IMG/VR virus record: IMGVR_UViG_3300003690_003063
Span: 32,001-96,000 of that record
Reading direction: 5' to 3' (one strand)
DNA: 64,000 nucleotides
From: a virus
Every line of letters begins with the position of its first letter. Position 1 is the stretch's first letter. Of this stretch, positions 1-32,326 are shown one piece after another. The notes beneath the pieces were generated by a model that was not told the origin of the DNA, searched no databases, and worked only from the letters and a program-made list of their open reading frames with translations. Made by a program: the position numbers and the translations under genes.

Positions 1-7
1 CGGCACC

Positions 8-2893
8 ATGAGCCGCGGCCAGGCCGCGACGTGGGTAAGAATGCTCCAGCTTATGATAGCAAATTCTTTTAATCCTAACCTTCCGGCGCCGCTTCCTTGG
101 ACCGGGAACAGTGCTGACTACCTGCGGAACACACTCCATGGCAATCAAGAGTTTTATGGGGACACCGGCGCGCCAGTAGGCAATTACTACACAGGTGGTC
201 ACCGTTCGCATCTACATGTGGATCTGAACAATACCGGGCCGGCAACGTTAGTCAATCATACAGATGCTGCCCCTTGGCACGTTGTGGGAGGACAGAAAGG
301 CCAGAATCTTAAGATATGTGCGGACTTCTTCTACCTATCCTGTTATATGAACTCGTCCACGGGGGCGCCCAACGATCTTAGTTTTGCTATGGAGCAGGTG
401 GCCGGCGCAGAGAACTATTCTTCGGTGTATGCTAACGGTGATAACCACCAGTCCACGACTTCGGACGAAGTAAACTTTAGTGTGTTACGGCCGATGGGAC
501 CGGGCAACTACAATTCCGCGGCCTCGTTGGCAGCCCTTGGTCTCGAGCACCAGGATCCCGGTTCCAACTGGGATGGGTGGAATTCTCCTCTTCTCCGCCT
601 CATAGAGGATTATACTTTGGGCATCACGGACATGTTTAAGGGGCAGCTCGCAGCATCTTCTCCTTTAATGTATGTTATAGAAAAAAGGAGACTTCACGAG
701 ATAAGCCCGGGCGTATACGAAACCTATGTTGATCCCGCGACCCGAGAGCCTGTACAACGGATTTTTATAACGAGGAATTTTGATGATTCGATCTCTGAGG
801 ATATTGTATATTATGATACTCAAATCAAATACAGCCAGCCATATCAATATGATGTATATTTAATAAATATAGTTTTCGGCAGCAAGTACACATATACAGG
901 TGTTTCTGTAACTGCTCCCAGTTATGACACCGCGGTGACGACGGTGACGACTCCGGACGTATACGGTTACGCCCCTTCGGCTTATGGAAGAGGCTTGGCA
1001 AATGCCTTGGGATTTTATCGAGAAGAGGAACGCTACGAACAGCACGGTCAGCCCGGAGACTTCCTCGGCGACTATTTTGACAACGGAACAGACACCCACG
1101 CGATCAGCCCCAATCCTAATCCTTATGCGGGTCGGGTGGAAGCTCAATACAATTTTATGAAACTCGGCGACCCGCAAGATCTTGGGACGATCGGCGACCA
1201 CCCGGACACTTCCAACCCGGCGGTTTATTATGAGGATTTTGCGGCCGCGGGCCAGCCGCTACTACAGTTTCATGAAACTGATATTGGAGAAGACGGAGGT
1301 TTTGACGGATCCAATATTGGCGCCAATCCATCGTTCGGTGGAATTCCTTTCATCGAGCAGCTGTCGTGGCAATACTCAAACCCCGGCCTCCTCGAAGCGA
1401 TGATAGATACTCCGCTCACCGACGCGTATAAAAAATATGGGCAGTCCGGATTTTATGTTTTTGAGCCCCCCTGGATGGCACCGGGGCAACCGGGGGGTTC
1501 CGTTGGCGCAGAGAACACAACCCTACAGTCCACAGTGAGCTCGTTTGAGTGGGTAAACAAGTTTAGTGAGTGGGCCATCAACACCAAAACCCCGGCCGCC
1601 GTTGTCGATGATCCCTTCGGCCTGCCAGGGAACGGGGAGTGGGATACCCCAGTAGGAGGCCTCTATCAGGAAAACGATGCTATGCGCATATTACGCGAGC
1701 TGACGGTGAGAATAGCGAACGACGGCATGGGATTCGACTCGAACTACTCGCAAGGTGTGGTACCATATAGTGTATACATTCCTAACGTGCCGGCCATCGG
1801 GCAGTTCGAAATCCCCAGAGAAGAGCCTGAAAACTGCTTCGTCGCAGGCACCAAAGTGGCGGCTATGGTGGATGGTCATCTTTGTGGTGTCAATATTGAA
1901 GATATCCGTGTGGGAGATTTAGTAATGTCTTATAATCTCCTTACCAACACCACAGAATTTAAGCCCGTTATTGATATGACGTCTCCAATCCATAGCGATA
2001 TAGTTGAATTTGAATTTTCTAATGGTACTACAACACAACACACCTATGATCATCCTTATTATGTTGATAAGAAAGATTGGGCGTCTTATACGCCACAAGA
2101 AACAATGGACAGATATGACCATCCGGATTTAAGGGATGTGACACAAATTGAAGTGGGAGACCAATGTAAACTTACTACCGGAGAATTAGTAACACTGACA
2201 AATATTATAGAAGTGTTTAATGGCCCCATTCAAACATACAATATTATGGTTAAGGATAATAATAATTATTTTGCTGATGAGATTTTAGTTCATAATAAAA
2301 CTACTGCCGGCCGGCCAGGCGGCCCGGAAGGGGATCCCTCTTGCTTCATGGCTGGAACGAAGATTCTTTTGCCTGCCGGTCTCTCCAAAAATATAGAAGA
2401 TATGAGAATTGGAGATTATGTGATGTCTTATAATTTGATGACCAAGGAACCTGAGCCGCAACAGGTACTCAATGTTATGTCGCCCATGCATGATGATATA
2501 GTTGAATTTAGATTTGCTAACGGGACAACAACTCAACATACTTATGATCATCCATATTATGTTGTAGATAAGGGGTGGGCATCATATAATCCCGCGGCTA
2601 CTATAAGAAGGTACAAAACTCCAGATTTAGTTAATACTTCTTTAATAGAACCCGGAGACAGGTGCCTGCATTCTGCGGGCGAAGCTGTTGTTTTGACCGA
2701 CATTACAGAAGTATTAACAGAGGCCGTACAAACATACAATATTATAGTTGAACAAAACCATAACTATTTTGCAGATGACTTTTTAGTTCACAATAAGATC
2801 GCCGGCGGCGACGACGGGCCCGACGAAGAGGACGACGACGACACCGGCGGCGGGGGCGGTGGCGGCGCTAGCGACGTGTTCCTCGAGGATTAA
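8..2893 (+). CDS. Large putative virion (baseplate/tail region) protein with two tandem C-terminal Hint (intein-like/BIL) domains; probably 5'-truncated by the window edge
   Basis: The frame is open to the window start. It has two CF(V/M)AGT...HTYDHPYY...TYNI.V..N.NYFA...LVHN domains and lies in a structural gene cluster. Confidence 0.75.
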   Translation: MSRGQAATWVRMLQLMIANSFNPNLPAPLPWTGNSADYLRNTLHGNQEFYGDTGAPVGNYYTGGHRSHLHVDLNNTGPATLVNHTDAAPWHVVGGQKGQNLKICADFFYLSCYMNSSTGAPNDLSFAMEQVAGAENYSSVYANGDNHQSTTSDEVNFSVLRPMGPGNYNSAASLAALGLEHQDPGSNWDGWNSPLLRLIEDYTLGITDMFKGQLAASSPLMYVIEKRRLHEISPGVYETYVDPATREPVQRIFITRNFDDSISEDIVYYDTQIKYSQPYQYDVYLINIVFGSKYTYTGVSVTAPSYDTAVTTVTTPDVYGYAPSAYGRGLANALGFYREEERYEQHGQPGDFLGDYFDNGTDTHAISPNPNPYAGRVEAQYNFMKLGDPQDLGTIGDHPDTSNPAVYYEDFAAAGQPLLQFHETDIGEDGGFDGSNIGANPSFGGIPFIEQLSWQYSNPGLLEAMIDTPLTDAYKKYGQSGFYVFEPPWMAPGQPGGSVGAENTTLQSTVSSFEWVNKFSEWAINTKTPAAVVDDPFGLPGNGEWDTPVGGLYQENDAMRILRELTVRIANDGMGFDSNYSQGVVPYSVYIPNVPAIGQFEIPREEPENCFVAGTKVAAMVDGHLCGVNIEDIRVGDLVMSYNLLTNTTEFKPVIDMTSPIHSDIVEFEFSNGTTTQHTYDHPYYVDKKDWASYTPQETMDRYDHPDLRDVTQIEVGDQCKLTTGELVTLTNIIEVFNGPIQTYNIMVKDNNNYFADEILVHNKTTAGRPGGPEGDPSCFMAGTKILLPAGLSKNIEDMRIGDYVMSYNLMTKEPEPQQVLNVMSPMHDDIVEFRFANGTTTQHTYDHPYYVVDKGWASYNPAATIRRYKTPDLVNTSLIEPGDRCLHSAGEAVVLTDITEVLTEAVQTYNIIVEQNHNYFADDFLVHNKIAGGDDGPDEEDDDDTGGGGGGGASDVFLED
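1835..2296 (+). other. Hint/BIL domain 1 (154 aa, Cys1 to His-Asn, +1 residue Lys)
   Basis: CFVAGTKV start, IEDIRVGD, block B T-x-x-H (HTYDHP), C-terminal YFADEILVHN. No homing endonuclease. Confidence 0.9.
2342..2794 (+). other. Hint/BIL domain 2 (151 aa, Cys1 to His-Asn, +1 residue Lys)
   Basis: CFMAGTKI start, IEDMRIGD, HTYDHP, C-terminal YFADDFLVHN. Paralogous to domain 1. Confidence 0.9.
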
Positions 2894-2898
2894 AGAAT

Positions 2899-4599
2899 AT
2901 GGTATCTTCCACAAACTGGTACATGGACATAGAAGTCTACCTGAAGAATAGTGGTCCGGACGAGGGCGGTCAAGGAGACACCTTGGAACTCCTGGACACA
3001 TTTGAATATGGCCCTTATGTCTGGGCCCACGGCGCCGTCATTACTTTAGAAGACTTTATAACGACCATTAATGATGCCAATGTGACCAGGGCAGACGCCG
3101 AGGGCATACCAATTTTTTATATCTGGGCGACTCCCTTTTTAACATCCCGCTCGCCTTCGAGCTCTGGTGCCGGGTACGTTCGCCCACGCGGGCCTAATCT
3201 AAGTAGGGCCTGGGGCGGCCTCCCGACTCTGCAGAGAAAATTGAGCTCGCCCGGGCAGCCCTACATGGCGGCCGAAGGCCACGCCGCAATGCCGCAGGAT
3301 ATGGACATCACCGCCGGCGCCAATGGCATGTACAATGGCCAACTGGTTATTCGTTACGATATATCTATGGTCGACTCCGTGTTTTGGAACGGCATCTGGA
3401 CGTCCGTCGATTATGTAGGCCCTGACGGCGCGGTGAATCCGTTCAGCGACGGCTATAGTTATTATGGATTTAAAATTATTTGGCGCACAGGAAACGAGAC
3501 ACTTGTGAGCCCAAGTACGTCAGTCACGACAACGACATACTCTCCTGCTGGTACGTACGCTGACGTGAACTACACGAAAATCCCCAATCCTTTGGCGATA
3601 AAGGCTCCATACCAGGGTTTTGATGCGTGGATGCTGGGTCCAGATAGCGACAACGACGGCATCCCCGACATCGACATCAAGGTCAACGGCGTAATTATCA
3701 CTTCTGTACATGATGATTCTCCATTGCCTCCAAACTCGGCTATAGTTCCCTATATGGGGATTAGTAATAAACTATTAATTATGTTAAATTCGAACACGGG
3801 AGAGTACGAGGCGCGCCCAGTTCCTATATTGGAAGAAGACTGGGGGAAAATTCAGGGTATTTACGGTGGCGGCAGTCCCCCACGAAACTATACCATTGAT
3901 GAAATAAAAGCACTTCTTGCGGATCCCGAGGCTGATCCAACTGATTATGCTGTAGAATACAAGAAAGACGATCCCACCACTAAATTTGAAATTTTCCGGA
4001 TGACAGAAAAACCAACCTCCTACCTAGATTTTGATACAGGAACAAACCCACACGCTACAATCGAAGAACAGCCATCCTTTGGCAAGCGCTCCGATGGAGC
4101 TTCTCTTCTAGACGATATACAACCAAATAAAAAATATTATTACTGTTTTAGGTCTATAGACGTACATCACAACATTTCTAATCCAAGTCACGTTTTCGAA
4201 GTAGAGATGGTAGACAATGACGGTCAAGTTTATATTATCTTGAATACGATTGATTTTGACCCAGGACCAAAGCGCGTTTCTATAAAGTCTGGTCGTCGGT
4301 TTATATATATTGAACCATCGCTGCAAAATCTTACGTTTGCTGACACCGACCTTCTCGAAGACCCCATTGTCCCGGGGGTAGCACTTAGTTCGATTGTCCC
4401 AACTGAGGTACCTTCCGATGATCTTTTGGGCGCCCTGCTGCCTGCCGAGGAAGCCGCCATACTTGCTGCTGGTGGCACATTGCCCCAACGAGTATGGAAC
4501 GACACATATAAAATACGCATCACTAGCAAGAAAACAAGCAGAAAAATTGATTTAAACTTAATATTCAAGAACAAGGGGGTAAAAAATCCCTCGGGTTAA
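2899..4599 (+). CDS. Putative virion structural protein (beta-rich, FN3-like C-terminal part)
   Basis: 566-aa ORF with GAGGA upstream and an FN3-like motif DDIQPNKKYYYCFRSID. Sits among structural genes. Confidence 0.6.
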   Translation: MVSSTNWYMDIEVYLKNSGPDEGGQGDTLELLDTFEYGPYVWAHGAVITLEDFITTINDANVTRADAEGIPIFYIWATPFLTSRSPSSSGAGYVRPRGPNLSRAWGGLPTLQRKLSSPGQPYMAAEGHAAMPQDMDITAGANGMYNGQLVIRYDISMVDSVFWNGIWTSVDYVGPDGAVNPFSDGYSYYGFKIIWRTGNETLVSPSTSVTTTTYSPAGTYADVNYTKIPNPLAIKAPYQGFDAWMLGPDSDNDGIPDIDIKVNGVIITSVHDDSPLPPNSAIVPYMGISNKLLIMLNSNTGEYEARPVPILEEDWGKIQGIYGGGSPPRNYTIDEIKALLADPEADPTDYAVEYKKDDPTTKFEIFRMTEKPTSYLDFDTGTNPHATIEEQPSFGKRSDGASLLDDIQPNKKYYYCFRSIDVHHNISNPSHVFEVEMVDNDGQVYIILNTIDFDPGPKRVSIKSGRRFIYIEPSLQNLTFADTDLLEDPIVPGVALSSIVPTEVPSDDLLGALLPAEEAAILAAGGTLPQRVWNDTYKIRITSKKTSRKIDLNLIFKNKGVKNPSG

Positions 4600-11592: not shown

Positions 11593-14500
11593 TTGTACAA
11601 GATAGCACATATAGCGGACACGCACATAAAGAATTTAAAGTTTCATTACGAGTATAAGATCGTATTCGATCAATTATATGAAATATTACGAAAAGAAAAC
11701 GTAGACTACATCGTACACTGCGGCGATATTGCCCACACCAAGACCCAGATTTCACCAGAGTTCGTTGAGCTTTGCTCCGACTTCTTCTTAAATCTAGCTA
11801 AAATCGCGCCCACATACATCATCTTGGGCAACCACGACGGCAACTTAAAGAATAGCACGCGCCAGGACGCCCTACTTAAAAACTCCGGAGAAGTCCTTGT
11901 TGGGGCTGATATCGCCTTTAATGTCCTATCGGTTTTTGATGAGGATAACTGGGCCGCGCCGAGTAATGAAGAGAACATTAACATCGCACTTTATCATGGC
12001 TCTGTATCTGGAGTGAAGACTGACACGGGCTGGGTGATGACTCATGGAGATCATGACGTGGGTATTTTCGCGGGCCACGATTATGCCATGCTTGGCGATA
12101 TTCATAAGACTAATCAGATTCTGGATACCGAGGGTCGCGTGCGGTATGCGGGATCTACTGTTCAACAGAACCATGGGGAGACCAATGACAAAGGCTTTTT
12201 GATTTGGGAGATCGAGGACAAGGACACCTTTACGGTTAATCATCACGTTCTTCTCAACCCTAAGCCGTTTAAGACTATTGAACTCACACCAAAGGGGCGC
12301 ATGCCAAAGGGTACCAAAATCCCAGCTGGAGCGCGCCTTAGGCTGGTGAGTAATAACAATTTGCCTCTTGACGTGATGCGTAAGGCTGTTGAAGTTGCCA
12401 AGCACCGGTTCAACCCGGAAAGCATTACTTTTTTGAATCGTGCAGCGGGGGAAAGAGGAACAGTCGAGATCGGCGCAGGCTTTAAAGTAGAGAACCTGCG
12501 AGACAAGGGAGTTCAGGAAAACCTTATTCGTGAATACCTCACGGATTATGAGCCGAGTGAGGAAATACTTGAGAGGGTGTTTGAACTGAACCGAAAATAT
12601 AACTCACAGATTGAAGAAACGGAAGAGGTCGCTCGGAATGTAAATTGGAATCTTAACAGGTTTGAGTGGGATAACTTGTTTAATTATGGAGAAGGCAATA
12701 GCGTTGACTTCGCAAATCTTAATGGGATTGTAGGAATTTTTGGCAAGAATTATTCCGGAAAGTCTAGTATTATTGATGGCTTACTATACACGATCTTTAA
12801 TACAACCTCTAAGAATGAGCGCAAGAACTACAACATTATCAACCAGAACAGGAAAGACTGCCGCGGCCTCGTTGAGCTACAAGTTGGTGAGAAAATCTAT
12901 ACCATTGAGAGAACGTCTGAAAAGTATGTAAAGAAGCTTAAGGGCGAAGTCACCAATGAAGCACGTACCAATCTAGACTTTAGCGGCCTAGATCCTGTAG
13001 CGGGAGAAAAAACGAGTCTTAACGGCACGACTCGCAACGAGACCGACGCTCATATTCGTAAGCGATTTGGAACAGTAGAAGACTTCTTACTGACGTCTAT
13101 GTCTAGCCAGCTCGACAATTTGTCGTTTATTAAGGAAGGTTCTACGCGACGGAAGGAAATTCTAGCTAAGTTCCTGGATTTAGACATCTTTGAGAAAAAA
13201 TTTAAATTGTCTCATGAGGATTCTGCTGACCTTAAAGCGGTCATCCGGCGCATGGGAGACATTGATTATAATAATGATATAGTGATAGCAGAGGTTCAGC
13301 GGGATGAAGCTCAGAAAGTTTTGGATGAAGAGGCTCTCGTTGCCGAGGAGCTGAGAAAAGATCTCAGCGCCGACAAGTCTATATATATGTCCTTAACAGA
13401 GCAGATAGACTCAATTCCGGCTGAGCGTTTGGATATTAAAAATCTATTGGAATCACGCTCTACTCTTAAAAAGAAGATAGAAGAGACGAATATCAACATT
13501 GTGGAACTTAAGGACGAAAATATAGACTATGACAAACATCTTAAAGAATACGATGATTTTTTAACAACTATAGATATTGAAGATCTCCTCGAAAAAAAGA
13601 AAGATTATGACAACTTCAAACAAAAATATGACGACATTGTGAACCGGGCGCGCCTGATGGACAACGAATACAAAGTTATGGACAAGAAAGTACAATTACT
13701 TGACGAGGTACCATGTGGCAACCAATACCCGATGTGCCAGTTTATCCGGGATGCGCACTTGGCATCTGTAGAGTTGCCGTCGCTAGAAGTGGACATTATA
13801 GATAAGATTGAAGAAGCTACGAAGTACAAGTCTAAAGTTGTATCAGTCAATTCAGCAGAAATGATTGAGGTAATCGATAGATATAATAATATTATTATAA
13901 AAAAGAACAACATCGAGATTGAAAAGCGTGACAATAAGGTCTCGATTGAAAAATTATATGCGAAGATAAAAATTCTCAGAGCCGATCTTACAGAAACGGA
14001 TGAAAAGATTGTCCTCTACGAAGATAAAAAAGAATTAATTAAAAACATCGAAAAACTGGTAGATTCCCGTAATGGAGTCCAAGAGCAGATACAACAGACA
14101 AAAGAAGCAATTCAGACATACGAGGAACTTATCAATCAGCATCATCGTACTATTGGCTCATTGGAGCAGAAGGTAGAATCATTCAAAGAAAAGAAGAGTG
14201 ACCTTACCAATATTCGGGAAGAGTATGCGGCTTATGATTTATTTATGCACTGTATGCATTCGAATGGGATTGCTTATGATATTATTAAAAAACGGCTGCC
14301 AGTAATTAATGCTGAAGTTTCCAAGGTTCTTTCTAATATTGTGGATTTTGAGGTGTTCTTTCAAGAAGACGGGCGCAAGTTGGATATTCTCCTAAAGCAC
14401 CCGAAACATGACCCACGTCCAATTGAAATGGGGTCCGGCGCTGAGAAGACAGTCGCCGCAATGGCTATCCGTCTGGCTTTATTATCTGTATCGTCCCTTC

Positions 14501-14703
14501 CTAAAGGGAATGTTTTTATTTTGGATGAGCCGGGTACGGCCCTCGATGCCGAAAATATGGAGGGGTTCACTCGAATCCTTCAGTTGATTAAAATGTATTT
14601 TAAAATAGTTATCCTTATTTCTCACTTAGATTCACTAAAAGACATTGTTGATGTGGAAATTACCATTGATAAGAATGGCGGCTATGCGCGAGTAAATCAA
14701 TAG
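11593..14703 (+). CDS. Fused SbcD/Mre11 (gp47-like) nuclease and SbcC/Rad50 (gp46-like) ATPase
   Basis: ADTH, CGD, GNHD phosphoesterase motifs; Walker A GKNYSGKS; long coiled coil; GSGAE signature; FILDEP Walker B; ISH loop. TTG start with GGAG SD. Confidence 0.9.
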   Translation: MYKIAHIADTHIKNLKFHYEYKIVFDQLYEILRKENVDYIVHCGDIAHTKTQISPEFVELCSDFFLNLAKIAPTYIILGNHDGNLKNSTRQDALLKNSGEVLVGADIAFNVLSVFDEDNWAAPSNEENINIALYHGSVSGVKTDTGWVMTHGDHDVGIFAGHDYAMLGDIHKTNQILDTEGRVRYAGSTVQQNHGETNDKGFLIWEIEDKDTFTVNHHVLLNPKPFKTIELTPKGRMPKGTKIPAGARLRLVSNNNLPLDVMRKAVEVAKHRFNPESITFLNRAAGERGTVEIGAGFKVENLRDKGVQENLIREYLTDYEPSEEILERVFELNRKYNSQIEETEEVARNVNWNLNRFEWDNLFNYGEGNSVDFANLNGIVGIFGKNYSGKSSIIDGLLYTIFNTTSKNERKNYNIINQNRKDCRGLVELQVGEKIYTIERTSEKYVKKLKGEVTNEARTNLDFSGLDPVAGEKTSLNGTTRNETDAHIRKRFGTVEDFLLTSMSSQLDNLSFIKEGSTRRKEILAKFLDLDIFEKKFKLSHEDSADLKAVIRRMGDIDYNNDIVIAEVQRDEAQKVLDEEALVAEELRKDLSADKSIYMSLTEQIDSIPAERLDIKNLLESRSTLKKKIEETNINIVELKDENIDYDKHLKEYDDFLTTIDIEDLLEKKKDYDNFKQKYDDIVNRARLMDNEYKVMDKKVQLLDEVPCGNQYPMCQFIRDAHLASVELPSLEVDIIDKIEEATKYKSKVVSVNSAEMIEVIDRYNNIIIKKNNIEIEKRDNKVSIEKLYAKIKILRADLTETDEKIVLYEDKKELIKNIEKLVDSRNGVQEQIQQTKEAIQTYEELINQHHRTIGSLEQKVESFKEKKSDLTNIREEYAAYDLFMHCMHSNGIAYDIIKKRLPVINAEVSKVLSNIVDFEVFFQEDGRKLDILLKHPKHDPRPIEMGSGAEKTVAAMAIRLALLSVSSLPKGNVFILDEPGTALDAENMEGFTRILQLIKMYFKIVILISHLDSLKDIVDVEITIDKNGGYARVNQ

Positions 14704-14950: not shown

Positions 14951-15369
14951 TGAAGCTTTTAAAGTTAAAATTAGTTGCTAAAAAAGTTTGGCTTTGGGCC
15001 AAAAAGTTTTGGTGGGCTATCGTTATAGCTCTCGGTTTTATAATCGCAATTTTGGTTTGGGTGTTAACTCGTAATGGAGCCTTCGCCGCGACCTTGATGG
15101 ATCTTTTGGAATCGAAGAGAGAGGCTCATGTGAAAGAGATGGAAACGCTGACGCGCATTCACGACACTGAAGTATCCGCGAAAAATACTCGCCTAGAAGT
15201 ACACCTCAAGAAAAGAGCTGAACTAGAAGAAGAGTTTAAGAAGAGAGGCGAATCTATGGACAAAGAAAAGGAAGCAGAGCTTAAAAGACTTGTAGATGAG
15301 AGTTATAATGATCCTGAGAAGTTGGCTGAAGAATTAGCTAAAGTATTTGGAATGAAAGAAAATGGTTAA
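14950..15369 (+). CDS. Membrane-anchored coiled-coil protein, putative inner-membrane spanin
   Basis: Basic N-terminus, one TM helix, then a charged coiled coil. Coupled to the holin-like gene. Confidence 0.45.
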   Translation: MKLLKLKLVAKKVWLWAKKFWWAIVIALGFIIAILVWVLTRNGAFAATLMDLLESKREAHVKEMETLTRIHDTEVSAKNTRLEVHLKKRAELEEEFKKRGESMDKEKEAELKRLVDESYNDPEKLAEELAKVFGMKENG

Positions 15370-15844
15370 AAAAATATTATCTCTTTATTTAATTGGTTAT
15401 TTGCTGGCCCCCTCGGTTGCAATTGCGACGGAGCCCGAAGAAGAATCAGCAACAGACGAAACGTACCAAATAGTTTCCTTAAAGGAGGGAGAGACCGCTC
15501 CTTTCGCGGGGGTATTATTGTCTTTAGACGTGGCCGCCAAAATTATAACAGAGAAAAAATTCGAAGATGCGTCATGTGATCTTCGTATTGGGTATGAGTT
15601 AAATCTGCAGGAAGAGCGCTTTCGATTACAACTAGATTTCAAAGATATTGAAATTCACTCTTGGAAAGATAAGTACGAGTCTATGATGATTCTTAAAGTA
15701 GCGGAAAATGATCGACTTGAAAAACTAATATTCAAACAGAATCCTAACAAGGAACCTTGGATGGTTGCACTGGGATTTGGAATTGCCACTCTGACATCTC
15801 TGGGAATATTTGCTATTTCGACGGAGATCGTAGAGGGTGGCTAG
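15362..15844 (+). CDS. Exported protein with a C-terminal TM helix, putative spanin-like partner
   Basis: Signal-peptide-like N-terminus (A-x-A site), helical middle, C-terminal hydrophobic segment. Confidence 0.4.
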   Translation: MVKKILSLYLIGYLLAPSVAIATEPEEESATDETYQIVSLKEGETAPFAGVLLSLDVAAKIITEKKFEDASCDLRIGYELNLQEERFRLQLDFKDIEIHSWKDKYESMMILKVAENDRLEKLIFKQNPNKEPWMVALGFGIATLTSLGIFAISTEIVEGG

Positions 15845-16493
15845 AAGATTAATACCCGAGGCGACAAGTCGATCTAGGCTCTTAGAATTTATAAAAAAGC
15901 ATCGAGCGAAGGCTGGCATTACAGAAGCTGCCGGTTCGAATACCCAAATTCAATTTAATGACGCCGGCGTCTTCGGCGCGGATGCAGATTTAGTATGGGA
16001 TACAACAGATGGCGATGGATTGGGAATTGGATTACAACACTATGGGAATAAGTTCCCACAAGTTCATTTAGATGTTAACTATGGTTATCTAGATGACCTA
16101 GATAACGATACAGGGGGAGGCGAGAGTGTCGCATTCGGCACGGGCACGACTACTGCTGGAAAGCTTTATTACTTAAAGAATGACGGGGTATGGACAGAAG
16201 CCCGGGCAAACGCGGTTGCCACCGGAGCCAAAGAGCTATTGGGTATAGCATTAGGCACCGACCCGGCCACTAACGGAATGTTACTGCGAGGGTTTTTTCA
16301 AATGACTAGTTATCTACAGGGAACCTGGGATGAAGGCATTCCCGTCTATGTCAGCGATACACATGCTGGCCAAGGAGATATAGATATTCCAGCAAGTTCC
16401 GGTGATTTTGTAAGGGTTATTGGATATTGTGGCGCGGGTACGACTGATCTGATCTATTTTAATCCCAGTAGCACCTACATTGAACTTTCATAA
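15837..16493 (+). CDS. Virion fibre/decoration-like protein
   Basis: GSNTQIQFNDAGVFGAD fibre motif; LLGIAL...GMLLRG beta domain. Confidence 0.55.
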   Translation: MARRLIPEATSRSRLLEFIKKHRAKAGITEAAGSNTQIQFNDAGVFGADADLVWDTTDGDGLGIGLQHYGNKFPQVHLDVNYGYLDDLDNDTGGGESVAFGTGTTTAGKLYYLKNDGVWTEARANAVATGAKELLGIALGTDPATNGMLLRGFFQMTSYLQGTWDEGIPVYVSDTHAGQGDIDIPASSGDFVRVIGYCGAGTTDLIYFNPSSTYIELS

Positions 16494-17407
16494 TGTCTGA
16501 AGTTAGTAAAGTCAGTGCTGTAGCGATAGCCGACATAGAAGCTATTAATGGTGTTGACGCAGATGACATAGAGTCTCTTGATGGCGTAGATTTTGTGACG
16601 GGGTTTAGTAATACGTATTCTCTTCGACAGATGGTCACGGCCGGGACGGGCTCTATGCAAGTAGCAAATCCTAATAGCTATCATTTTGAAAGTGGGGGCA
16701 CCGATCAAGCATTTAGTATTAGTGCGTGGGTTCATGGGAAAGTAGACCCTCCCAGTAAATTTAGAATTGCGAGCAAGGGAACTGTTGCGGTCGGCGCGAC
16801 TGCAACTAATCGGGAATGGGTTTTAACCACTGGTTCCCCTCCTTGGTATGCTCCCAGCGACCCACCTCCTATTCAATTTACTATTTACGGAAATACAGAT
16901 GCATCCGTTTATATTCAACGATTTGGAGGCGAGATGACTATTAGCGGAAGCTGGAATCATATCGTGGCCACTTATGATGGTAACGGCTCTTCGGGAGCAA
17001 GCGGAAGTTTGGAGATATATCTTAATGGAGTCCGTTTCCCCGGCACAAACCCATCTGATGTCGGTTCATACTCATCCCTTGCAGACAGTGGGCTGCCGGT
17101 TATAATAGGAGCAATTGCCGGCAACTCTGACAGGTTTCAGGGGTATATAGATGAGGTAAGTATTTGGAACAAAGAACTGTCCTCTGGTGATATCACACAT
17201 ATTTATAATTCCGGAACGCCAACTGATATATCAGCTTCTGGCAGTTTATTATCTTGGTGGCGAATGGGCGACAATGATGGGGGCTCCGGGACTACGGTTA
17301 CGGATGTACAGGGTGCTGGAAATGGTTCCTTGGATAACGCGAACGGCCCCGCAGGAGCAGGAAAGTTTAGCGCTAGCGATGGAATTTCATCGGACTCGGT
17401 ACCATAA
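16493..17407 (+). CDS. LamG/concanavalin A-like jellyroll protein, putative carbohydrate-binding virion protein
   Basis: FSISAWV, WNHIVATYDG, IYLNG, IIGA, FQGYIDEVSIWNKELS, LLSWWRMGD. Confidence 0.85.
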   Translation: MSEVSKVSAVAIADIEAINGVDADDIESLDGVDFVTGFSNTYSLRQMVTAGTGSMQVANPNSYHFESGGTDQAFSISAWVHGKVDPPSKFRIASKGTVAVGATATNREWVLTTGSPPWYAPSDPPPIQFTIYGNTDASVYIQRFGGEMTISGSWNHIVATYDGNGSSGASGSLEIYLNGVRFPGTNPSDVGSYSSLADSGLPVIIGAIAGNSDRFQGYIDEVSIWNKELSSGDITHIYNSGTPTDISASGSLLSWWRMGDNDGGSGTTVTDVQGAGNGSLDNANGPAGAGKFSASDGISSDSVP

Positions 17408-17799
17408 TGTCTGATGATAAACAACAGTATATCGCAAAATTAGAAAAAGCCATCTCACAAAAGTATGGCGAAGAAACTATTAATAATCCTCGCCGGTTTT
17501 GGGATGCGGAAAAAGAACAAGAGTACATAACTCAATCTCAAGCGCAACAAATAAAGTTTGGGAAACTGGCTGAATCTCAAGACAAAGTAGAACAAGATGG
17601 ATTTTTAATAAATAAAAAACTACTTACTAGAGACCACAATAGGACTTGTCCTGTGTGTGAAAAATATTCTTTTCATCCTCGTGATGATTTATATATGAAT
17701 AAGTTTCAAGCGTGCTTTAACTGTTTCGTATGTTACGTGGAAGGAAGAGAAGAGAGATGGGCAACTGGTTGGAGACCACAAAATGAAAATAGCACATAA
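17407..17799 (+). CDS. Hypothetical protein with a Cys4 zinc-binding motif
   Basis: CPVC...CFNC; coupled to its neighbours. Confidence 0.6.
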   Translation: MSDDKQQYIAKLEKAISQKYGEETINNPRRFWDAEKEQEYITQSQAQQIKFGKLAESQDKVEQDGFLINKKLLTRDHNRTCPVCEKYSFHPRDDLYMNKFQACFNCFVCYVEGREERWATGWRPQNENST

Positions 17800-18061
17800 A
17801 AAACTTCGTCGGATTATTCGAGAGGAAACTGAAGCATTTCAATATGAAAAGATGCTTAGGGAGCAGGATCCCGACTTATTATTAGAGAATCCAATTGCAG
17901 CAGTTGTCTTACAACTGTTGAAAAATCCCCAAGTTGTGGAAATGTTAACGCAGCTTTTGCTTCCCAAGCTTATGGGAGGGCTGACTGGCGGTGGTGCCTC
18001 TGCGGGCACAACCGGTACCGGCGGCGCCATCGGCGCCACCGGCGGTCTGAAAGAGGAATAA
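17783..18061 (+). CDS. Small putative internal head protein, leader MKIAHKKLRRIIREE
   Basis: Shared leader, L-x-E sites, then an amphipathic hydrophobic segment and a Gly-rich tail. Confidence 0.6.
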   Translation: MKIAHKKLRRIIREETEAFQYEKMLREQDPDLLLENPIAAVVLQLLKNPQVVEMLTQLLLPKLMGGLTGGGASAGTTGTGGAIGATGGLKEE

Positions 18062-18064
18062 AGA

Positions 18065-18613
18065 ATGGCAACAGTATACGAAATCATCCAAGGAATTAAC
18101 CAAGCAGCCTCGAATGCCTATGATGGAGCTCACGAGGAGGGGCTGCAAGCTGATGGTAAGGCGAGAAAGGCGGGCCTTTCGCGTGAAGACGGTCACTATA
18201 TTAATGATAGTCGTGTAATGGACGGCTTTAAAGTTTCTTTTCATGGCCCCCTCTTGCGCGTTAACTATCAGGCTGAGGTAAGACTTAAAGATGTGAAAGA
18301 AACTGGTTTCGAAAATGACATCATCTCTCATCTTAAAGATATCATAAAATTTTTAAAGAAAGAATATAAAGACATTACTGGGAATACCCTTACACTTACG
18401 AAAGAAGGAGACCACAAGATCCTCGTTCAAAGAATTTCTAATTATCGCACTGACTGTCAAGCTCATTGTGATTATCGGATTGGCGGCCTCAAAGACGCAA
18501 TTGAAGTGAACGAGGGATCTGACGAAGATCGTCTCGATGACGCGATTAAAAAGTGGCTGGCCATGGGCCCTAAAAATAAGCGTCCCAAGAACGATACCCG
18601 TAAAGGTAAATAA
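18065..18613 (+). CDS. Hypothetical protein upstream of terminase
   Basis: 182-aa ORF with GAGGA SD. Confidence 0.6.
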   Translation: MATVYEIIQGINQAASNAYDGAHEEGLQADGKARKAGLSREDGHYINDSRVMDGFKVSFHGPLLRVNYQAEVRLKDVKETGFENDIISHLKDIIKFLKKEYKDITGNTLTLTKEGDHKILVQRISNYRTDCQAHCDYRIGGLKDAIEVNEGSDEDRLDDAIKKWLAMGPKNKRPKNDTRKGK

Positions 18614-18621
18614 CACATGTT

Positions 18622-20199
18622 ATGGGGAACGCCCTTACTAAACAAGAGATTTTAAAAGAGATCGTCAAAGCGGGCAAAGATCCGATCTATTTTACGACGA
18701 ATTATTGTCGTATCTCCCATCCGCAAAAAGGCCTTATACCATTTAAGGCATATCATTATCAACAAGATCTGCTCAAAGATTTTAATGATTACCGATTCAA
18801 TATAATTCTGAAGGCGCGCCAACTCGGTATTTCAACAATCACGGCAGCCTATGTTGCGTGGCTTATGCTGTTCCACCGCGATAAAAATATTCTTGTAGTG
18901 GCAACGAAGCTTCAGACCGCAACTAATCTCGTTAGAAAAGTTAAAGCAATTATTAAGCACCTACCTCCGTGGATGCGTATAGCAGAGATTATAGTTGATA
19001 ATAGAACTTCCTTTGAATTAAACAATGGGTCACAGATTAAAGGATCTTCTACTGCGGGTGACGCAGGCCGCTCTGAGGCCCTTTCATTGTTAGTCGTTGA
19101 TGAGGCTGCCCATGTTGAAAAACTTTCTGATTTATGGACGGCACTTTATCCTACACTTTCCACTGGTGGTCGATGCATCGCGCTTTCAACGCCTAATGGT
19201 GTCGGCAACTGGTTTCATCAACATTGTGTTGAGGCCGAAAACGGAACCAACGATTTTCATATGACGACACTTTTGTGGGACCAACACCCTGATCGAGATA
19301 AGAAATGGTTTGATAAAGAAACCAAAAATATGTCAAAGCGCCAAATAGCGCAGGAGCTAGAGTGCAATTTCAACGTATCCGGGGAGACAGTTATACACCC
19401 AGACGATATTCAGTGGTATCTGGAGAGAACGATCGCTCCAGAGTATCGGACAGGGTTTGATAGAAACTATTGGATTTGGAAGCAACACGAGGCCGGCAAA
19501 CCCTATCTTATAGTTGCTGACGTTGCCCGCGGCGATGGAAAAGATAATAGTGCTTTCCACATCTTGGAGTTAGCCACAATGGAAGTGGTGGCTGAATATG
19601 TGGGTAAACCCACCCCAGACGATTTCGCTGATATTTTATATAATGTGGCAAAAGAGTACGGTGATCCCATGTTGGTGATAGAAAACAACAACATAGGCTA
19701 TGCAGTACTTAAAAAACTATCAGATAAAGGGTATCCTAACTTATATCACTCAACAAAAGGAGATCATAGCTATGTAGATCCTGTGTCGGCGCAATGGCAA
19801 TCGAATGTTATTCCAGGGTTTACTACTTCTTCTAAAACGCGGCCTCTTATCGTGGCGAAGATGGAAGAGTTTATGAGAAACAAACTAATTAAGATTAACT
19901 CGAATAGGTTACTTTCTGAAATGAAAACGTTTATTTGGCACCACGGTCGACCACAGGCTATGAGAAGCTATAATGATGATTTGGTTATGTCGTTTGCTAT
20001 TGGATGTTGGGTAAGAGATACGGTGATTGTTGAGAGCCAGAAAAATATGGAATATAATAAGCAATTTTTATCCTCCATTTCAACCACCAAGACAGCTATC
20101 TCGACTACTATCCCGGGAATGCGCGATCATAGAACATCAACCGATATCAAACAAGCATCTGAGTTTGTGGAACAGTATATGGCGCTAATAAAAGGTTAA
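18622..20199 (+). CDS. terL: Terminase large subunit (T4 gp17-like)
   Basis: LKARQLGIST Walker A, LLVVDEAA Walker B, STPNG coupling motif, QELEC, IVADVARGDGKD nuclease motif, DDLVM. Confidence 0.95.
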   Translation: MGNALTKQEILKEIVKAGKDPIYFTTNYCRISHPQKGLIPFKAYHYQQDLLKDFNDYRFNIILKARQLGISTITAAYVAWLMLFHRDKNILVVATKLQTATNLVRKVKAIIKHLPPWMRIAEIIVDNRTSFELNNGSQIKGSSTAGDAGRSEALSLLVVDEAAHVEKLSDLWTALYPTLSTGGRCIALSTPNGVGNWFHQHCVEAENGTNDFHMTTLLWDQHPDRDKKWFDKETKNMSKRQIAQELECNFNVSGETVIHPDDIQWYLERTIAPEYRTGFDRNYWIWKQHEAGKPYLIVADVARGDGKDNSAFHILELATMEVVAEYVGKPTPDDFADILYNVAKEYGDPMLVIENNNIGYAVLKKLSDKGYPNLYHSTKGDHSYVDPVSAQWQSNVIPGFTTSSKTRPLIVAKMEEFMRNKLIKINSNRLLSEMKTFIWHHGRPQAMRSYNDDLVMSFAIGCWVRDTVIVESQKNMEYNKQFLSSISTTKTAISTTIPGMRDHRTSTDIKQASEFVEQYMALIKG

Positions 20200-20202
20200 A
20201 TT

Positions 20203-22176
20203 ATGGCAAAAAGAGAAAACAACCCTAGAAACCCAGCGGCTCCTCTGTTTAAGAGGCTTACTAGGCTTTTATCAGGGCCTATTGTAAATTACCGCGCACA
20301 GATCGCGCGTCAGGAACGCCGCGGCGACCTGGATAAATATAGATATCGTTTCCGTTCGATGAGCGGCCAAGAATTTAAGAGGTCCGACAATAACTTTTCT
20401 CAAAACTATAACTTGTTTACATCTGCGGCATTCCGTAATCAAAATCGGTCGGAGCGCTATATTGATTTTGAACAAATGGAATACATGCCCGAGATTGCAT
20501 CGGCTATGGATATCTATGCTGACGAGATGACTACGTCCAACGAGTATAATCAGTTATTAAATGTTGCCTGTATGAATCTGGAAATTAAAACTATCTTAGA
20601 GTCTCTTTTTTATGATGCCCTGAACATTGAATTTAACGCCTTTGGGTGGGCGCGCTCAATGTGTAAGTATGGCGATTTTTTTATGTATTTAGATATAGAT
20701 GAAAAGCTCGGGGTTACAAACGTAATTGGAATGCCGAATAATGAGGTCGAGCGTCTTGAGGGGCAAGACCCTACCAATCCGAACTATGTCCAGTATCAGT
20801 GGAATGGCGCCGGCATAACGTTCGAGAACTGGCAAGTTGCACATTTTCGTATTTTAGGTAACGATAGACATGCTCCGTATGGCACTTCTGTTTTGGATCC
20901 TGCTCGACGTATTTGGCGTCAGCTTACATTATTAGAAGACGCTATGATTGCCTATCGTGTTGTCCGCGCCCCCGAGCGCCGCGTGTTTAAAATTGATGTG
21001 GGGAATATCCCCCCCCAAGATATCCCGCAGTACATGGAAAAGGTTAAAACCGAGATGAAACGAAATTCATTGATAGATGCCAATACGGGCCGCGTTGATT
21101 TACGTTATAACCCCCTATCGCTAGAAGAGGATTATTTTATTCCTATGCGGGGTGGAGTGGGGTCTGATATTATTTCGCTCCCGGGCGCTAAATCTCTCGA
21201 TGATATCGACGATGTGAAGTATTTAAGAGATAAGATGTTTTCAGCTCTTAAAATTCCTCAATCTTATCTTACAAACTTGGAAGGGGCTGACGAAGATAAG
21301 ACTACGTTAGCACAGAAGGACATCCGGTTTTCTAGAACTATCCAGCGACTTCAACGTTCTTTGGTTTCAGAGCTTGAAAAAATATCTATAGTTCATCTTT
21401 ACACTCTTGGTTTCCGCGGCGACGACTTAATTAGTTTTGATTTGACCCTGAATAATCCCTCCCGACTTGCTGAGCTCCAGCAATTAGAATATCTGCGTAC
21501 TAAATTTGATGTGGCCAATGCGGTACCAGAAGGAACCTTCAGCAAACGCTGGGTGGGCCACAACATTCTGGGACTCTCTGACGAAGAGGTGCTACGAAAT
21601 CAGCGGGAATCCTTCTACGATCGTAAATATTCGCAGGCATTAGAGGCCGTGGTGGACGAGGGCGCCGAAGAGGCCGCCATGGGCGGCGAAGAAGGCCTTG
21701 GCGATCTCGGCGGAGACCTCGGTGGCGATCTCGGCGGAGACCTCGGCGGCGATCTCGGCGGAGAAGCTGCCCCCGCCGGTGAAGAATCTCCTCTATTAAC
21801 GGCTCCCGGTCGCGTCGAAGATATAAGAGAAGAGGATGGAGATGTCCGAAATTATGAAAAAAGTTCATATGAAACTGTACGACGCCGCGGCGGCGACCAG
21901 AGACGCAAAGGCCGCTCGGGCCCCACAAGCAGACACATTAAAAATACTGCATTGCCGGAGGCCCCTAGTCTTGGCACTCGCCGTTCCCGGCTCCCAGGCG
22001 TCGTTAAAACTTCTGATTTAGGATTGGGCACAATAGATTTTAAATCAATGGTGGGCTTGGAAGAACAAAAGGCATCTATTTATAATAGTGAAACGAGACT
22101 TCTAGAGAATACTACACGGGTTCGGAGGCTTGTGGAACAGCTAGAAAAAAAAGAGGCGGAAAAGGATGAAACATAA
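20203..22176 (+). CDS. Portal protein (T4 gp20-like)
   Basis: LLEDAMIAYRVVRAPERRVFKIDVGN, EDYFIP.RGG, LPGA..L.DIDDVKY, ALKIP.S. Confidence 0.95.
   Translation: MAKRENNPRNPAAPLFKRLTRLLSGPIVNYRAQIARQERRGDLDKYRYRFRSMSGQEFKRSDNNFSQNYNLFTSAAFRNQNRSERYIDFEQMEYMPEIASAMDIYADEMTTSNEYNQLLNVACMNLEIKTILESLFYDALNIEFNAFGWARSMCKYGDFFMYLDIDEKLGVTNVIGMPNNEVERLEGQDPTNPNYVQYQWNGAGITFENWQVAHFRILGNDRHAPYGTSVLDPARRIWRQLTLLEDAMIAYRVVRAPERRVFKIDVGNIPPQDIPQYMEKVKTEMKRNSLIDANTGRVDLRYNPLSLEEDYFIPMRGGVGSDIISLPGAKSLDDIDDVKYLRDKMFSALKIPQSYLTNLEGADEDKTTLAQKDIRFSRTIQRLQRSLVSELEKISIVHLYTLGFRGDDLISFDLTLNNPSRLAELQQLEYLRTKFDVANAVPEGTFSKRWVGHNILGLSDEEVLRNQRESFYDRKYSQALEAVVDEGAEEAAMGGEEGLGDLGGDLGGDLGGDLGGDLGGEAAPAGEESPLLTAPGRVEDIREEDGDVRNYEKSSYETVRRRGGDQRRKGRSGPTSRHIKNTALPEAPSLGTRRSRLPGVVKTSDLGLGTIDFKSMVGLEEQKASIYNSETRLLENTTRVRRLVEQLEKKEAEKDET
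21700..21762 (+). repeat. 12-nt tandem repeat encoding (GDLG)n in the portal C-terminal tail
   Basis: ggcgatctcggc/ggagacctcggy units, about 5 copies, giving GDLGGDLGGDLG... Confidence 0.85.
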
Positions 22177-22972
22177 TAAGAAGCGGAACACAGCATTTAT
22201 TTATGAAACTTTGGCCAAAGAACTTACGAAGAATATCGTAGATAAAGACGACGGAAGAAAAAATAAAGTTGTTAGAATTCTTAAAGAGTTTTTTGTTCAG
22301 GGAACGATTCTCGCACGAGAGCTTGAACTTTATCAGATTCTTCTTCAAACACAAAATGTTCAAAAAGAGATAGCCGAACGTCTTTTAGGCGAAACTAAAA
22401 AAGCTCGCGTCATCTTAGATCAAAATAAAATTTTTGATGCCCAGTCGCGACTCATAGCCGCCGTTAATAAGGGAATTGGACAACAAGTATGGGCCAACTT
22501 CGTTCCCAATTTTAAGTCTTTGGCCTCAGTTAGTGCTATTTTTAATATTAAGACCGCCGTTAAACAGAGAGTTTTATTTGAACAATCAATCATCGATAAA
22601 ATGAGCGCTAAGAAATCATCTCAATTCCCCGATAATCTGAGATCAATTGACAATTTAGTCTATGGATCATTTATTAAGAAATTTAATAACAAGTATGGAG
22701 ATCTTATTCAGGAGCAAAAAGATTTATTAAATCATTATATTATTAGTTTTGCTGATGATGGTTTTGAGTTGCGACTATATCTTAATGAGGAGATCGGCAG
22801 ACTTAAGACGTTGCTCTCTGAATTGGGCGCCGATACGCAAGCGTCCCTTATTGTTGAAAAAACACAGGCTGTACAGGGCTACCTTGAAAATATTCGCAAA
22901 CGGGAGTTTGCTGAAGCCGATATTGACAAAATTTTAAAGACACAACAATTAGTTCGGGAGCTCCAAGAATAA
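22166..22972 (+). CDS. Helical head-morphogenesis-region protein
   Basis: 268-aa ORF overlapping the portal 3' end (MKHNKKRNT...). Confidence 0.65.
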   Translation: MKHNKKRNTAFIYETLAKELTKNIVDKDDGRKNKVVRILKEFFVQGTILARELELYQILLQTQNVQKEIAERLLGETKKARVILDQNKIFDAQSRLIAAVNKGIGQQVWANFVPNFKSLASVSAIFNIKTAVKQRVLFEQSIIDKMSAKKSSQFPDNLRSIDNLVYGSFIKKFNNKYGDLIQEQKDLLNHYIISFADDGFELRLYLNEEIGRLKTLLSELGADTQASLIVEKTQAVQGYLENIRKREFAEADIDKILKTQQLVRELQE

Positions 22973-23478
22973 TGATTAAGATTAAGATTGGAGGCCCGCA
23001 GGCTACTGTCGAACTCAATGCTCGAAAAGCATTAGATGGTTCTCTCCTTATCATGGATCATCAAAAGATTGACATTGCGGTGGTGCCAGATAAACTTAAA
23101 GTCGTGACATTTCCAAAAACGACATCCACCGAGGACGTCTACGATTATCAAAATAGATTGTTAGAATTGTTAGCAGATAAAGGCATCATCGACCGCAGCA
23201 GTATTCAGGGGGGGAATGTCTTTCGTTCTCTAGAGGGGACAGTACATGAGAGCGAACAAATTAACCCCCTACAGGCTGCGGTATATATAATAGCTGAGTT
23301 CATCAACAGCGAGGCAGAGCATGAACAAGTCGCCGATAGATATGAGAAAGAGCTTGAAGATATGTATACCCACCCAGACGATAGAGATTCCACTGAATAT
23401 GGTGAAGTTCCCCAATATGCCGAAAAGGGTTCCATGCGTCCTGGCTACTACTATTATCCATTAAGAAATCGATATTAA
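22972..23478 (+). CDS. Hypothetical protein
   Basis: TAATG coupling; 168 aa. Confidence 0.6.
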   Translation: MIKIKIGGPQATVELNARKALDGSLLIMDHQKIDIAVVPDKLKVVTFPKTTSTEDVYDYQNRLLELLADKGIIDRSSIQGGNVFRSLEGTVHESEQINPLQAAVYIIAEFINSEAEHEQVADRYEKELEDMYTHPDDRDSTEYGEVPQYAEKGSMRPGYYYYPLRNRY

Positions 23479-23479
23479 A

Positions 23480-23797
23480 GTGGAGCTGTTACATTTTGTG
23501 CTTGCCGCGTACGGCATGACTTTTATCATTATTCACGGACATATCTTTAATAAGATACGTCCCGCTTGTCAAGCATGGGGAGGTTTTGGAAGATTATTTC
23601 ATTGTCATCTGTGTATGGGATTTTGGGTTGGCGTCTTTCTTTGGGGCGTAAGTCCTTACACAGAACTATTTAATTTTGACTATACGTTCGTAAATGCTTT
23701 CATTTGCGGCTGTATTAGCGCTGGTACCTCATACTTCTTAAGTATGTTGGTAGAGGATTACGGGATCAGAGTGATCTATAAAGGAGGTGAATCATGA
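23480..23797 (+). CDS. Small membrane protein, DUF1360-like
   Basis: Hydrophobic segments and LFHCHLCMGFWVG (CxxC-x-x-x-W motif). Confidence 0.6.
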   Translation: MELLHFVLAAYGMTFIIIHGHIFNKIRPACQAWGGFGRLFHCHLCMGFWVGVFLWGVSPYTELFNFDYTFVNAFICGCISAGTSYFLSMLVEDYGIRVIYKGGES

Positions 23798-23850
23798 AAA
23801 AGTGGATGATCCAGCCGGTTCGTCGATGCTGCTCTGGTAGCATACTTTAG
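23794..23850 (+). CDS. 18-aa minigene MKKWMIQPVRRCCSGSIL
   Basis: Perfect SD AAGGAGGT and ATGA overlap with the previous stop. Below the ORF-track cutoff. Confidence 0.45.
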   Translation: MKKWMIQPVRRCCSGSIL

Positions 23851-23888
23851 GTGGGACCGTAAAGACCCACGTTAAATAAATAGGAATT

Positions 23889-24886: not shown

Positions 24887-24891
24887 GAACA

Positions 24892-25491: not shown

Positions 25492-25495
25492 AAGT

Positions 25496-30813: not shown

Positions 30814-30972
30814 TTAAATTAAATACGTCTTTTTTTACTTATACGTCCTATATGTAATAGAGACGGAAGTGGGTATTAATATATATTTTGCTCCTTCAGA
30901 TTGTGTATAATCATTTAATTTGTGTTTATTGAGTTTTTCACCCGTTTTGCCATAATATAGGAGGATTTTAAA

Positions 30973-32223: not shown

Positions 32224-32265
32224 GATAATTCTAACTTCTCTTCGGAGATAGTTATACAAATATTT

Positions 32266-32300: not shown

Positions 32301-32326
32301 GTGTTCGAACGCCTATTTAGAATGAG

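Follow-up and report, generated by a model that had tools for sequence, protein, structure and literature searches.

A tandem pair of Hint domains followed by lysine at a variable gene junction of a marine T4-like phage

The DNA analyzed here (the window) comprises 64,000 nucleotides, i.e., bases 32001 to 96000 of a 112-kb IMG/VR contig (IMGVR_UViG_3300003690_003063) that is estimated to be 62% complete and derives from an uncultured marine T4-like myovirus. At the end of a large protein, it encodes two tandem Hint domains, each terminating in His-Asn and each followed by lysine. Our analysis confirmed that the pair consists of noncanonical bacterial intein-like (BIL) domains in which all residues for formation of a Cys1 thioester and for cyclization of the terminal Asn are present. 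The pair is positioned at a junction that in related phages is found fused or split, with or without Hint domains, and we tentatively interpret it as a module that would remove itself from the preceding protein by cleavage.

The window encodes two mini-Hint domains in tandem

Translation of positions 1835 to 2893 exactly reproduced the arrangement described in an earlier note on this DNA, i.e., two paralogous mini-Hint domains of 154 and 151 residues, joined by a 15-residue linker and followed by a 32-residue tail. The elements, with the predicted local distance difference test (pLDDT) values of the flexible parts, are as follows.

1835 to 2296, plus strand: Hint1, 154 amino acids, CFVAGT...ILVHN; Cys1 at 1835-1837, T-x-x-H at 2042-2053, His-Asn at 2291-2296
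2297 to 2341, plus strand: linker KTTAGRPGGPEGDPS, 15 amino acids, Gly/Pro-rich, beginning with the +1 Lys of Hint1; predicted to be disordered, pLDDT 51-66
2342 to 2794, plus strand: Hint2, 151 amino acids, CFMAGT...FLVHN; Cys1 at 2342-2344, T-x-x-H at 2540-2551, His-Asn at 2789-2794
2795 to 2890, plus strand, stop codon at 2891-2893: tail KIAGGDDGPDEEDDDDTGGGGGGGASDVFLED, 32 amino acids, acidic and Gly-rich, ending in FLED; pLDDT below 50

Cys1, the T-x-x-H motif, and the terminal His-Asn followed by Lys, all listed in the earlier note, are present in both domains. Block B reads TYDH in either case, and the His-Asn-Lys triplets occupy positions 2291-2299 and 2789-2797. The +1 residue is thus Lys in both Hints (2297-2299 and 2795-2797), in place of the Cys, Ser, or Thr found at this position in canonical inteins. 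Hint1 and Hint2 share 57% identity (BLASTP E value of 1e-63) and are the only Hint domains of the whole contig. The linker resembles the start of the tails that follow the Hint in two homologs, P0003 and P0016, and P0003 ends with MLED behind a similar Pro/Gly/acidic tail. The Hint-bearing open reading frame (ORF) begins 5' of the window; the complete gene (G000 30403-34893) encodes 1,496 amino acids.

Profile matches and predicted fold

The search with profile hidden Markov models (HMMs) for Hint, PT-HINT, and inteins that the earlier note had proposed returned PT-HINT and intein_Cterm above their cut-offs. The Pfam model PT-HINT (PF07591) matched two stretches with an E value of 6e-15 and 56.1 bits (cut-off, 27.7), and five further models of the Hint clan, i.e., AXH, Hom_end_hint, Intein_splicing, Hint, and Hint_2, matched the same residues. 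The NCBIfam model intein_Cterm passed twice (32 bits versus 15.6), whereas intein_Nterm (22 versus 24.5), Pfam Intein_splicing (29.9 versus 35.8), and Pfam Hint PF01079 (26.7 versus 29.7) stayed below their cut-offs. The top Pfam score, 78.8 bits, was that of AXH (PF08517), the noncatalytic domain of ataxin-1 and HBP1, over the same residues as six Hint-type models. No AXH protein was present among the listed Foldseek matches (ranks 1 to 50, near-duplicate chains omitted), and we read the AXH score as a cross-match between related profiles. AXH outscores every Hint-named model on these Hints and on all relatives tested.

AlphaFold2 was used to model the last 382 residues of the protein. The model features two confident Hint folds, with pLDDT values mostly above 90; disorder is predicted for the 30 residues preceding Hint1 as well as for linker and tail. 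The first Foldseek match was BIL2 of Tetrahymena BUBL1 (6Y75/6TMM; target template modeling [TM] score of 0.91, 26% identity) and the second the BIL domain 2LWY of C. thermocellum (TM score of 0.90), followed by the DnaB, gp41-1, and RecA inteins and hedgehog. A phmmer search of the PDB sequences again gave BIL2 of BUBL1 and the C. thermocellum BIL as the best matches. Pfam scans detected no ubiquitin family, no folded domain lies between or behind the Hints, and the Hints themselves contain no homing endonuclease. Among 50,697 GenBank phage records searched by tblastn, no close relative of the Hints was found, just helicase and ribonucleotide reductase inteins at 25 to 31% identity.

A Hint subfamily with a basic +1 residue in viruses and cells

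A search for longer proteins with Hint1 matched 161 proteins, of which the 120 listed served as the viral family set for building an HMM; extraction with this HMM yielded 231 full units from 121 proteins. Cys1, the block B His, and His-Asn are present in 100% of these units and the block B Thr in 98%, so the loss of catalytic residues in most homologs, named in the earlier note as an outcome that would speak against autoprocessing, was not seen. Block B of the subfamily has the form T-[YF]-D-H-P. At +1, 141 units have Lys and 73 have Arg (together, 93%). Lys occupies this position in the last unit of 118 of the 121 proteins, and Arg does so in 71 of the 110 internal units. Ninety of the 121 proteins stop one residue past His-Asn (referred to as HNK-stop).

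Family proteins usually contain two or three Hints in tandem, and the spacers between Hints elsewhere in the family consist of 1 to 10 variable residues (RA, KA, K, RPMIGS, etc.). The predominant architecture comprises an N-terminal domain of about 460 residues, the last part of which is a degenerate Hint-like segment without Cys1, and two or three intact Hints. An example is the 911-residue protein encoded on a 183-kb viral contig (L007:8001-10736), with a head of about 460 residues, the last part of which resembles a Cys-less degenerate Hint ending in [ST]HN, and with three intact Hints and an HNK-stop end; Pfam gave no match for its head, and its gene neighbors encode an epimerase, a carbamoyltransferase, a 2-oxoglutarate-Fe(II) oxygenase, a radical S-adenosylmethionine protein, and a glycosyltransferase. 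The same Hint clade also occurs on the unrelated bodies P0004, P0060, and P0081. The gene for P0004 (locus L005) adjoins those for a T4 baseplate protein and a tape-measure-like protein, and P0081 has a middle segment that, judged by eye, is GDSL-hydrolase-like. In P0064 and P0205, proteins of about 1,800 residues, a Hint with +1 Lys lies in a variable linker that is uninterrupted in eight Hint-less clusters (P0206-P0213). That the C-extein of P0064 corresponds to the downstream gene was considered and rejected, as there is no similarity. In P0051, a Hint stands beside a segment resembling Peptidase_S74 (21.5 bits versus a cut-off of 22).

In a survey of one genome per prokaryotic species, 258 cellular relatives were confirmed, which belong to the Flavobacteriia (Bacteroidota), the Thermoplasmata, DPANN, and the Candidate Phyla Radiation. 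Among 91 full cellular units, Cys is the first residue in all 91, His-Asn is present in 89, and the +1 residue is Lys in 62 (68%); many of these units are located at the extreme C terminus. One metagenome-assembled genome of the Thermoplasmata (L076) contains a 2,927-residue ORF with nine tandem Hints of the subfamily, mostly with Thr at +1 and with Cys-rich linkers of 2 to 5 residues. The domain class as such is known. A literature search of incomplete coverage returned no paper on the subfamily with a basic +1 residue, its frequent occurrence at the ends of tail-module proteins of phages, or the four-state junction described below, all of which are apparently undescribed.

Base composition and selection on the two copies

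The impression, gained by eye in the earlier note, that the Hint DNA is richer in AT than the linker and flanks was confirmed by the G+C content at third codon positions (GC3) and by a comparison with 150-codon windows. GC3 is 0.30 for Hint1 and 0.33 for Hint2; the preceding part of the protein has a value of 0.515, and linker and tail reach 0.53 and 0.88, respectively, with a mean of 0.446 for the ORFs of the genome. When all in-frame windows of 150 codons in the 112-kb genome are ranked, Hint1 and Hint2 fall at the 1st and 3.5th percentiles, respectively. The low GC3 of the Hints is repeated in L005 and in L004, a contig syntenic with the window (about 0.30 to 0.35 within flanks of 0.42 to 0.64). 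Within this gene generally, conserved folded parts are AT-richer than low-complexity parts.

A comparison of Hint1, Hint2, and the L004 Hint with one another gave a saturated synonymous divergence (dS above 2) and a ratio of nonsynonymous to synonymous divergence (dN/dS) of at most 0.15. Judging from these sequence comparisons, both Hint copies are old and under purifying selection. Because dS is saturated, the AT-richness appears to be maintained and not the trace of a fresh transfer; a recent transfer as the cause of the low GC was therefore rejected, all the more since the same contrast recurs in L004 and L005.

One junction in four states

The two regions that flank the Hint pair and its tail are as follows.

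2 to 1834, plus strand: C-terminal 611 codons of the body (N-extein), the part of the 1,496-residue protein that precedes the Hints; gene start at G000 30403, upstream of the window
2899 to 4599, plus strand: downstream gene, 566 amino acids, in another frame, 5 nucleotides past the upstream stop

The different frame and the position 5 nucleotides past the TAA rule out simple read-through into the downstream gene. The C-terminal 300 residues encoded by the latter correspond to the second half of a protein that is encoded by a single ORF in many related phages.

A phmmer search with the body alone retrieved 67 homolog clusters, which have in common a conserved core (protein residues 730 to 880, about window positions 590 to 1040). 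Hints are found in only two of them, P0016 (one Hint) and P0157 (one divergent Hint). P0003, the L004 ortholog with one Hint, came from other searches, so that the copy number is 2, 1, and 1 in the window, P0003, and P0016, respectively. A word-indexed search with the body had returned the query alone; since it missed the ortholog P0016, it was considered insensitive, and the full phmmer search was used instead. No homolog of the body or the second half was found by tblastn in the GenBank phage records mentioned above, and contig patterns drawn from the body and from the homolog P0140 gave no match in scans of viral contigs. The disordered tail in which the Hints are located is a variable region, and 60 or more homolog clusters and loci lack them. 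Hint1 is orthologous to the sole Hints of P0003 (67% identity) and P0016 (66% identity). In a tree of all units it groups with these two, and Hint2 is sister to them with a support of 0.93.

The Hint-less homologs end differently. P0140, the closest of them, aligns with the body up to residue 1145, the position of Cys1, and continues with about 400 unrelated residues; the protein terminates in a self-cleaving Peptidase_S74 chaperone domain (26.5 bits versus a cut-off of 22). About sixteen clusters of 870 to 1,380 residues have at their end the motif found at the C terminus of the downstream gene product; in BLAST alignments of these clusters, the core of the body is followed within about 20 to 40 residues by the C-terminal 300 residues of the downstream gene product. 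A survey of 60 IMG/VR loci (L008-L067) holding the second-half domain gave the distribution below; near-duplicates are included, so the counts refer to loci and not to lineages.

Fused, no Hint: 31 of 60 loci
Split into two adjacent ORFs, no Hint: 19 of 60 loci
Split with Hint: 1 of 60 loci, the L004 contig
Junction unresolved: 9 of 60 loci

Where the gene is split, a low-complexity tail, often Gly/Pro-rich or acidic, terminates the first half, and the second ORF opens with the conserved motif W-[YW]-[ILM]-D-[IF]-x-E.

A further arrangement was found on a 3.6-kb metagenome contig (L149:3-1445), where a single ORF encodes at least 23 residues, a Hint, His-Asn followed by Lys, ten residues, and a complete second-half domain. 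The contig edge lies 23 codons upstream of the Hint, so that the contig does not cover a first half. The second half of L149 is 45% identical to that of the window (E value of 3e-74), the best match of any, and its Hint is sister to Hint2 within the same five-member clade (support of 0.92). Regarded as an insertion into a protein that is continuous in relatives, the window pair has the tail only as its C-extein, and the L149 Hint lies between the two halves in an interdomain linker at no conserved motif.

Taken together, the survey of 60 loci and L149 show four states of the junction, i.e., a fused form with a Hint and one without, a split form with one or more Hints and a tail, and a Hint-less split form. 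These findings support the view that the body gene and the downstream gene are the halves of one ancestral gene. A gene split that is caused by the Hint and always paired with it was rejected in view of the 19 split loci without a Hint.

Genomic context and the probable role of the body

The source phage encodes a T4-type portal, a gp23 capsid protein, a sheath protein, a large terminase, and a ribonucleotide reductase, all on the plus strand. The Hint gene lies within about 40 kb of very large plus-strand ORFs and upstream of RuvC-like and primase genes. For the body and its neighbors, PHROGs, Pfam, and NCBIfam provided no name. The fused homolog P0158 was modeled with a predicted TM score (pTM) of 0.80; the region equivalent to the window part of the body is modeled as FN3-like sandwiches, and its core and second half match FN3 domains only. 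Fold searches with P0158, in which the N-terminal 550 residues were not searched as a separate domain, returned FN3 and no baseplate or fiber protein. From the block of giant ORFs, the FN3 core of P0158, the homolog with an S74 domain, and the baseplate-adjacent Hint hosts, we infer that the body is a tail-module or virion protein. The designation "virion protein" in the earlier note is likewise read from context rather than observed.

Upstream of the window, one ORF of about 3,580 codons with a Laminin_G_3 domain (G000 15332-26074) is located in a run of giant ORFs. A single 1,036-residue ORF at window positions 11593-14703 combines an Mre11/SbcD-like phosphoesterase with a Rad50/SbcC-like ATPase.

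DISCUSSION

Since catalytic residues, fold, selection, and relatives agree, the Hints very probably carry out active self-processing of some kind. As for its outcome, we tentatively favor, at slightly less than an even chance, cleavage at the junctions as the main result, with the pair acting as a disposable, self-removing C-terminal module. By homology, each Hint would, after translation, convert the peptide bond preceding Cys1 into a thioester and would cyclize its terminal Asn. The Hints would thereby remove themselves from the body, linker and tail would be discarded, and the mature body would work with the separately encoded second half (2899-4599). The pair would then play the role that the Peptidase_S74 chaperone has at the end of a Hint-less homolog of the body. 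Cleavage is favored because BILs mainly cleave, because the halves are separate in many relatives, and because P0140 carries another self-cleaving module in this place; it would also yield a viable configuration, as at least 19 split loci without a Hint encode the halves as separate chains. As the earlier note stated, BILs that lack a +1 nucleophile are mainly self-cleaving; mostly cleaved products are described for them in the literature (PMC7664689, PMC7765530). The release of short peptides, which the same note had suggested as the purpose, is unlikely, since the spacers of the family are 1 to 10 variable residues long and most proteins stop one residue past His-Asn. Linker and tail as the actual products were likewise rejected, the spacers being too variable across the family.

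Several points weigh against self-removal by cleavage. His-Asn and the +1 Lys are invariant in the 90 of 121 HNK-stop proteins, in which C-terminal cleavage frees one lysine only. Two copies are kept under selection, although the orthologs P0003 and P0016 have one. The character of the tail and its [FM]LED end are alike in P0002 and P0003. The same subfamily is also present inside proteins that are uninterrupted in relatives (P0064/P0205 and L149), where rejoining of the flanks would make sense. Finally, we infer both the chemical steps and their outcome by homology.

A rival reading is Lys-dependent splicing, in which each Hint would be excised and its flanks rejoined, giving a mature protein composed of the body and a 47-residue Gly/Pro/acidic tail. 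The α-amine of the +1 Lys would attack the Cys1 thioester after Asn cyclization, or its ε-amine would do so before. We regard this route as unlikely on balance and nevertheless as a serious rival, because it is the simplest account of the invariant His-Asn and +1 Lys and of the interrupted proteins. The basic +1 residue in 93% of the 231 viral units, Lys in 118 of 121 terminal units and in 68% of the cellular units, and the full conservation of His-Asn even where the C-extein is a single Lys all fit splicing, as do the Hints that interrupt proteins continuous in Hint-less homologs (P0064/P0205 versus P0206-P0213; L149). Some Hint-less homologs of the body moreover end in similar Gly/Pro/acidic tails with LLED-like ends; this likeness is one of low complexity, however, and a strict composition test was passed by only 5 of 34 Hint-less homologs. 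The predominance of cleavage among BILs argues against splicing, and so does the lack of an obvious use for appending a single Lys in HNK-stop proteins. Arg, a poor side-chain nucleophile, at +1 in 71 of 110 internal units speaks against attack by the side chain but not against attack by an α-amine set free by Asn cyclization. A-type BILs were reported by Dassa et al. in 2004 to be able to splice without a +1 nucleophile. The formation of isopeptides by BIL2 likewise suits a lysine acceptor. The ligation idea of the earlier note has a real precedent in this domain, since BIL2 of BUBL1, the nearest solved structure, forms Lys ε-isopeptide conjugates (PMC8616854).

Conjugation in trans, in which a different molecule would resolve the Cys1 thioester through an amine or hydroxyl group, as with BIL2 in BUBL or with cholesterol in hedgehog, is in our view quite improbable. 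Candidate acceptors would be a virion protein other than the body, a component of the host envelope, or the second half, by way of its N terminus or a Lys; in the last case, the fused protein would be formed anew. The closest solved structure is a Lys-conjugating BIL, the Hints are located at the junction with a second half that is continuous in 31 loci and directly behind the Hint in L149, and the fact that the Hints were long retained and also duplicated once the gene had split suggests a positive function. On the other side, hedgehog has a sterol-recognition region behind its Hint, whereas the Hints of the window lack any such acceptor-binding segment and have disordered flanks; 19 split loci lack any Hint; two tandem copies would make Hint1 itself cargo; and there is no specific evidence for an acceptor. 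Improbable, too, is a related proposal that takes the invariant +1 Lys as the acceptor. In an ATP-free reaction, the Hint would pass the C-terminal carbonyl of the body, bound as the Cys1 thioester, to the amine of a lysine. The Hint's own +1 Lys (by splicing or as an N-ε "lysine cap") or a Lys or the N terminus of the second half would then serve. If true, transfer to the second half would re-create posttranslationally the single chain that is encoded by 31 loci and interrupted by a Hint in L149.

Chemically silent Hints that stay attached and provide a fiber or baseplate protein with terminal structural or binding modules would be compatible with the top score of the noncatalytic AXH model (78.8 bits) and with the cargo-less tandem arrays of the family. 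Binding modules, however, would need neither the nucleophile nor the two catalytic His, the Thr, and the Asn, which are essentially invariant in the 231 viral and 91 cellular units, and the structural neighbors are processing-competent BILs and inteins; we therefore consider this very improbable. We give similarly little credence, though slightly more, to a selfish intein-like element that is useless to the phage and kept because failed excision would harm the host protein, a reading that overlaps with the other alternatives. Its patchy distribution with most homologs lacking a Hint, the distinct base composition, and the presence of the same clade on the unrelated bodies P0004, P0060, and P0081 would be expected of such an element. 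A homing endonuclease is missing, however; deletion from a disordered, dispensable tail should be easy, yet both copies have been kept, their dS is saturated, and their dN/dS does not exceed 0.15; and other families have conserved multicopy architectures.

BIL-type Hint domains have been known since 2003. At this locus, a single junction provides a natural series for asking what these domains do. The Hint-less forms are fused or split; of the Hint-bearing ones, L149 is fused and has its Hint in the linker, whereas L004 and the window are split, with one or two Hints plus a vestigial tail. The series raises the questions of whether an invariant +1 Lys turns cleavage into ligation and whether a self-cleaving domain may serve as a stepping stone to gene fission. 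If the lysine chemistry were true, the domain would represent a compact, ATP-free tool for protein ligation.

Comparison with known systems

Of the known systems, the A-type BIL/PT-HINT domains (2LWY) share with the window pair the endonuclease-free mini-Hint of about 150 residues, Cys1, T-x-x-H, His-Asn, the lack of Cys, Ser, or Thr at +1, and the position in a variable region of a nonconserved protein. The window pair differs in being phage-borne and tandem, in its location at or near the C terminus rather than before a toxin, and in that its processing is predicted; its subfamily is set apart by the near-invariant basic +1 residue and the T-[YF]-D-H-P block B. BIL2 of BUBL1 (6TMM, 6Y75) is the top structural match, and the match to its PDB sequence covers the insert after block B. 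Hints are repeated within one polypeptide in both cases, and BIL2 chemistry uses a lysine amine. The BUBL Hints, however, flank ubiquitin-like domains in a ciliate, whereas those of the window are flanked by a disordered linker and tail in a phage. The class 1 mini-inteins (Ssp and Npu DnaB, gp41-1) have the same fold and blocks A, B, F, and G, but the window Hints carry +1 Lys and lie outside a conserved site of a conserved enzyme. The Hog/Hint domain of hedgehog resembles the window pair in its C-terminal position and in its fold (1AT0), and its Cys1 thioester releases an N-terminal protein; in the window, however, only a 15-residue linker and a 32-residue tail are present instead of a sterol-recognition region, and hedgehog lacks the terminal His-Asn. 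The Peptidase_S74 chaperone of phage tail fibers and spikes, lastly, is likewise a self-cleaving C-terminal module of fiber proteins, but with an unrelated fold and chemistry, being a trimeric chaperone with a serine-lysine protease.

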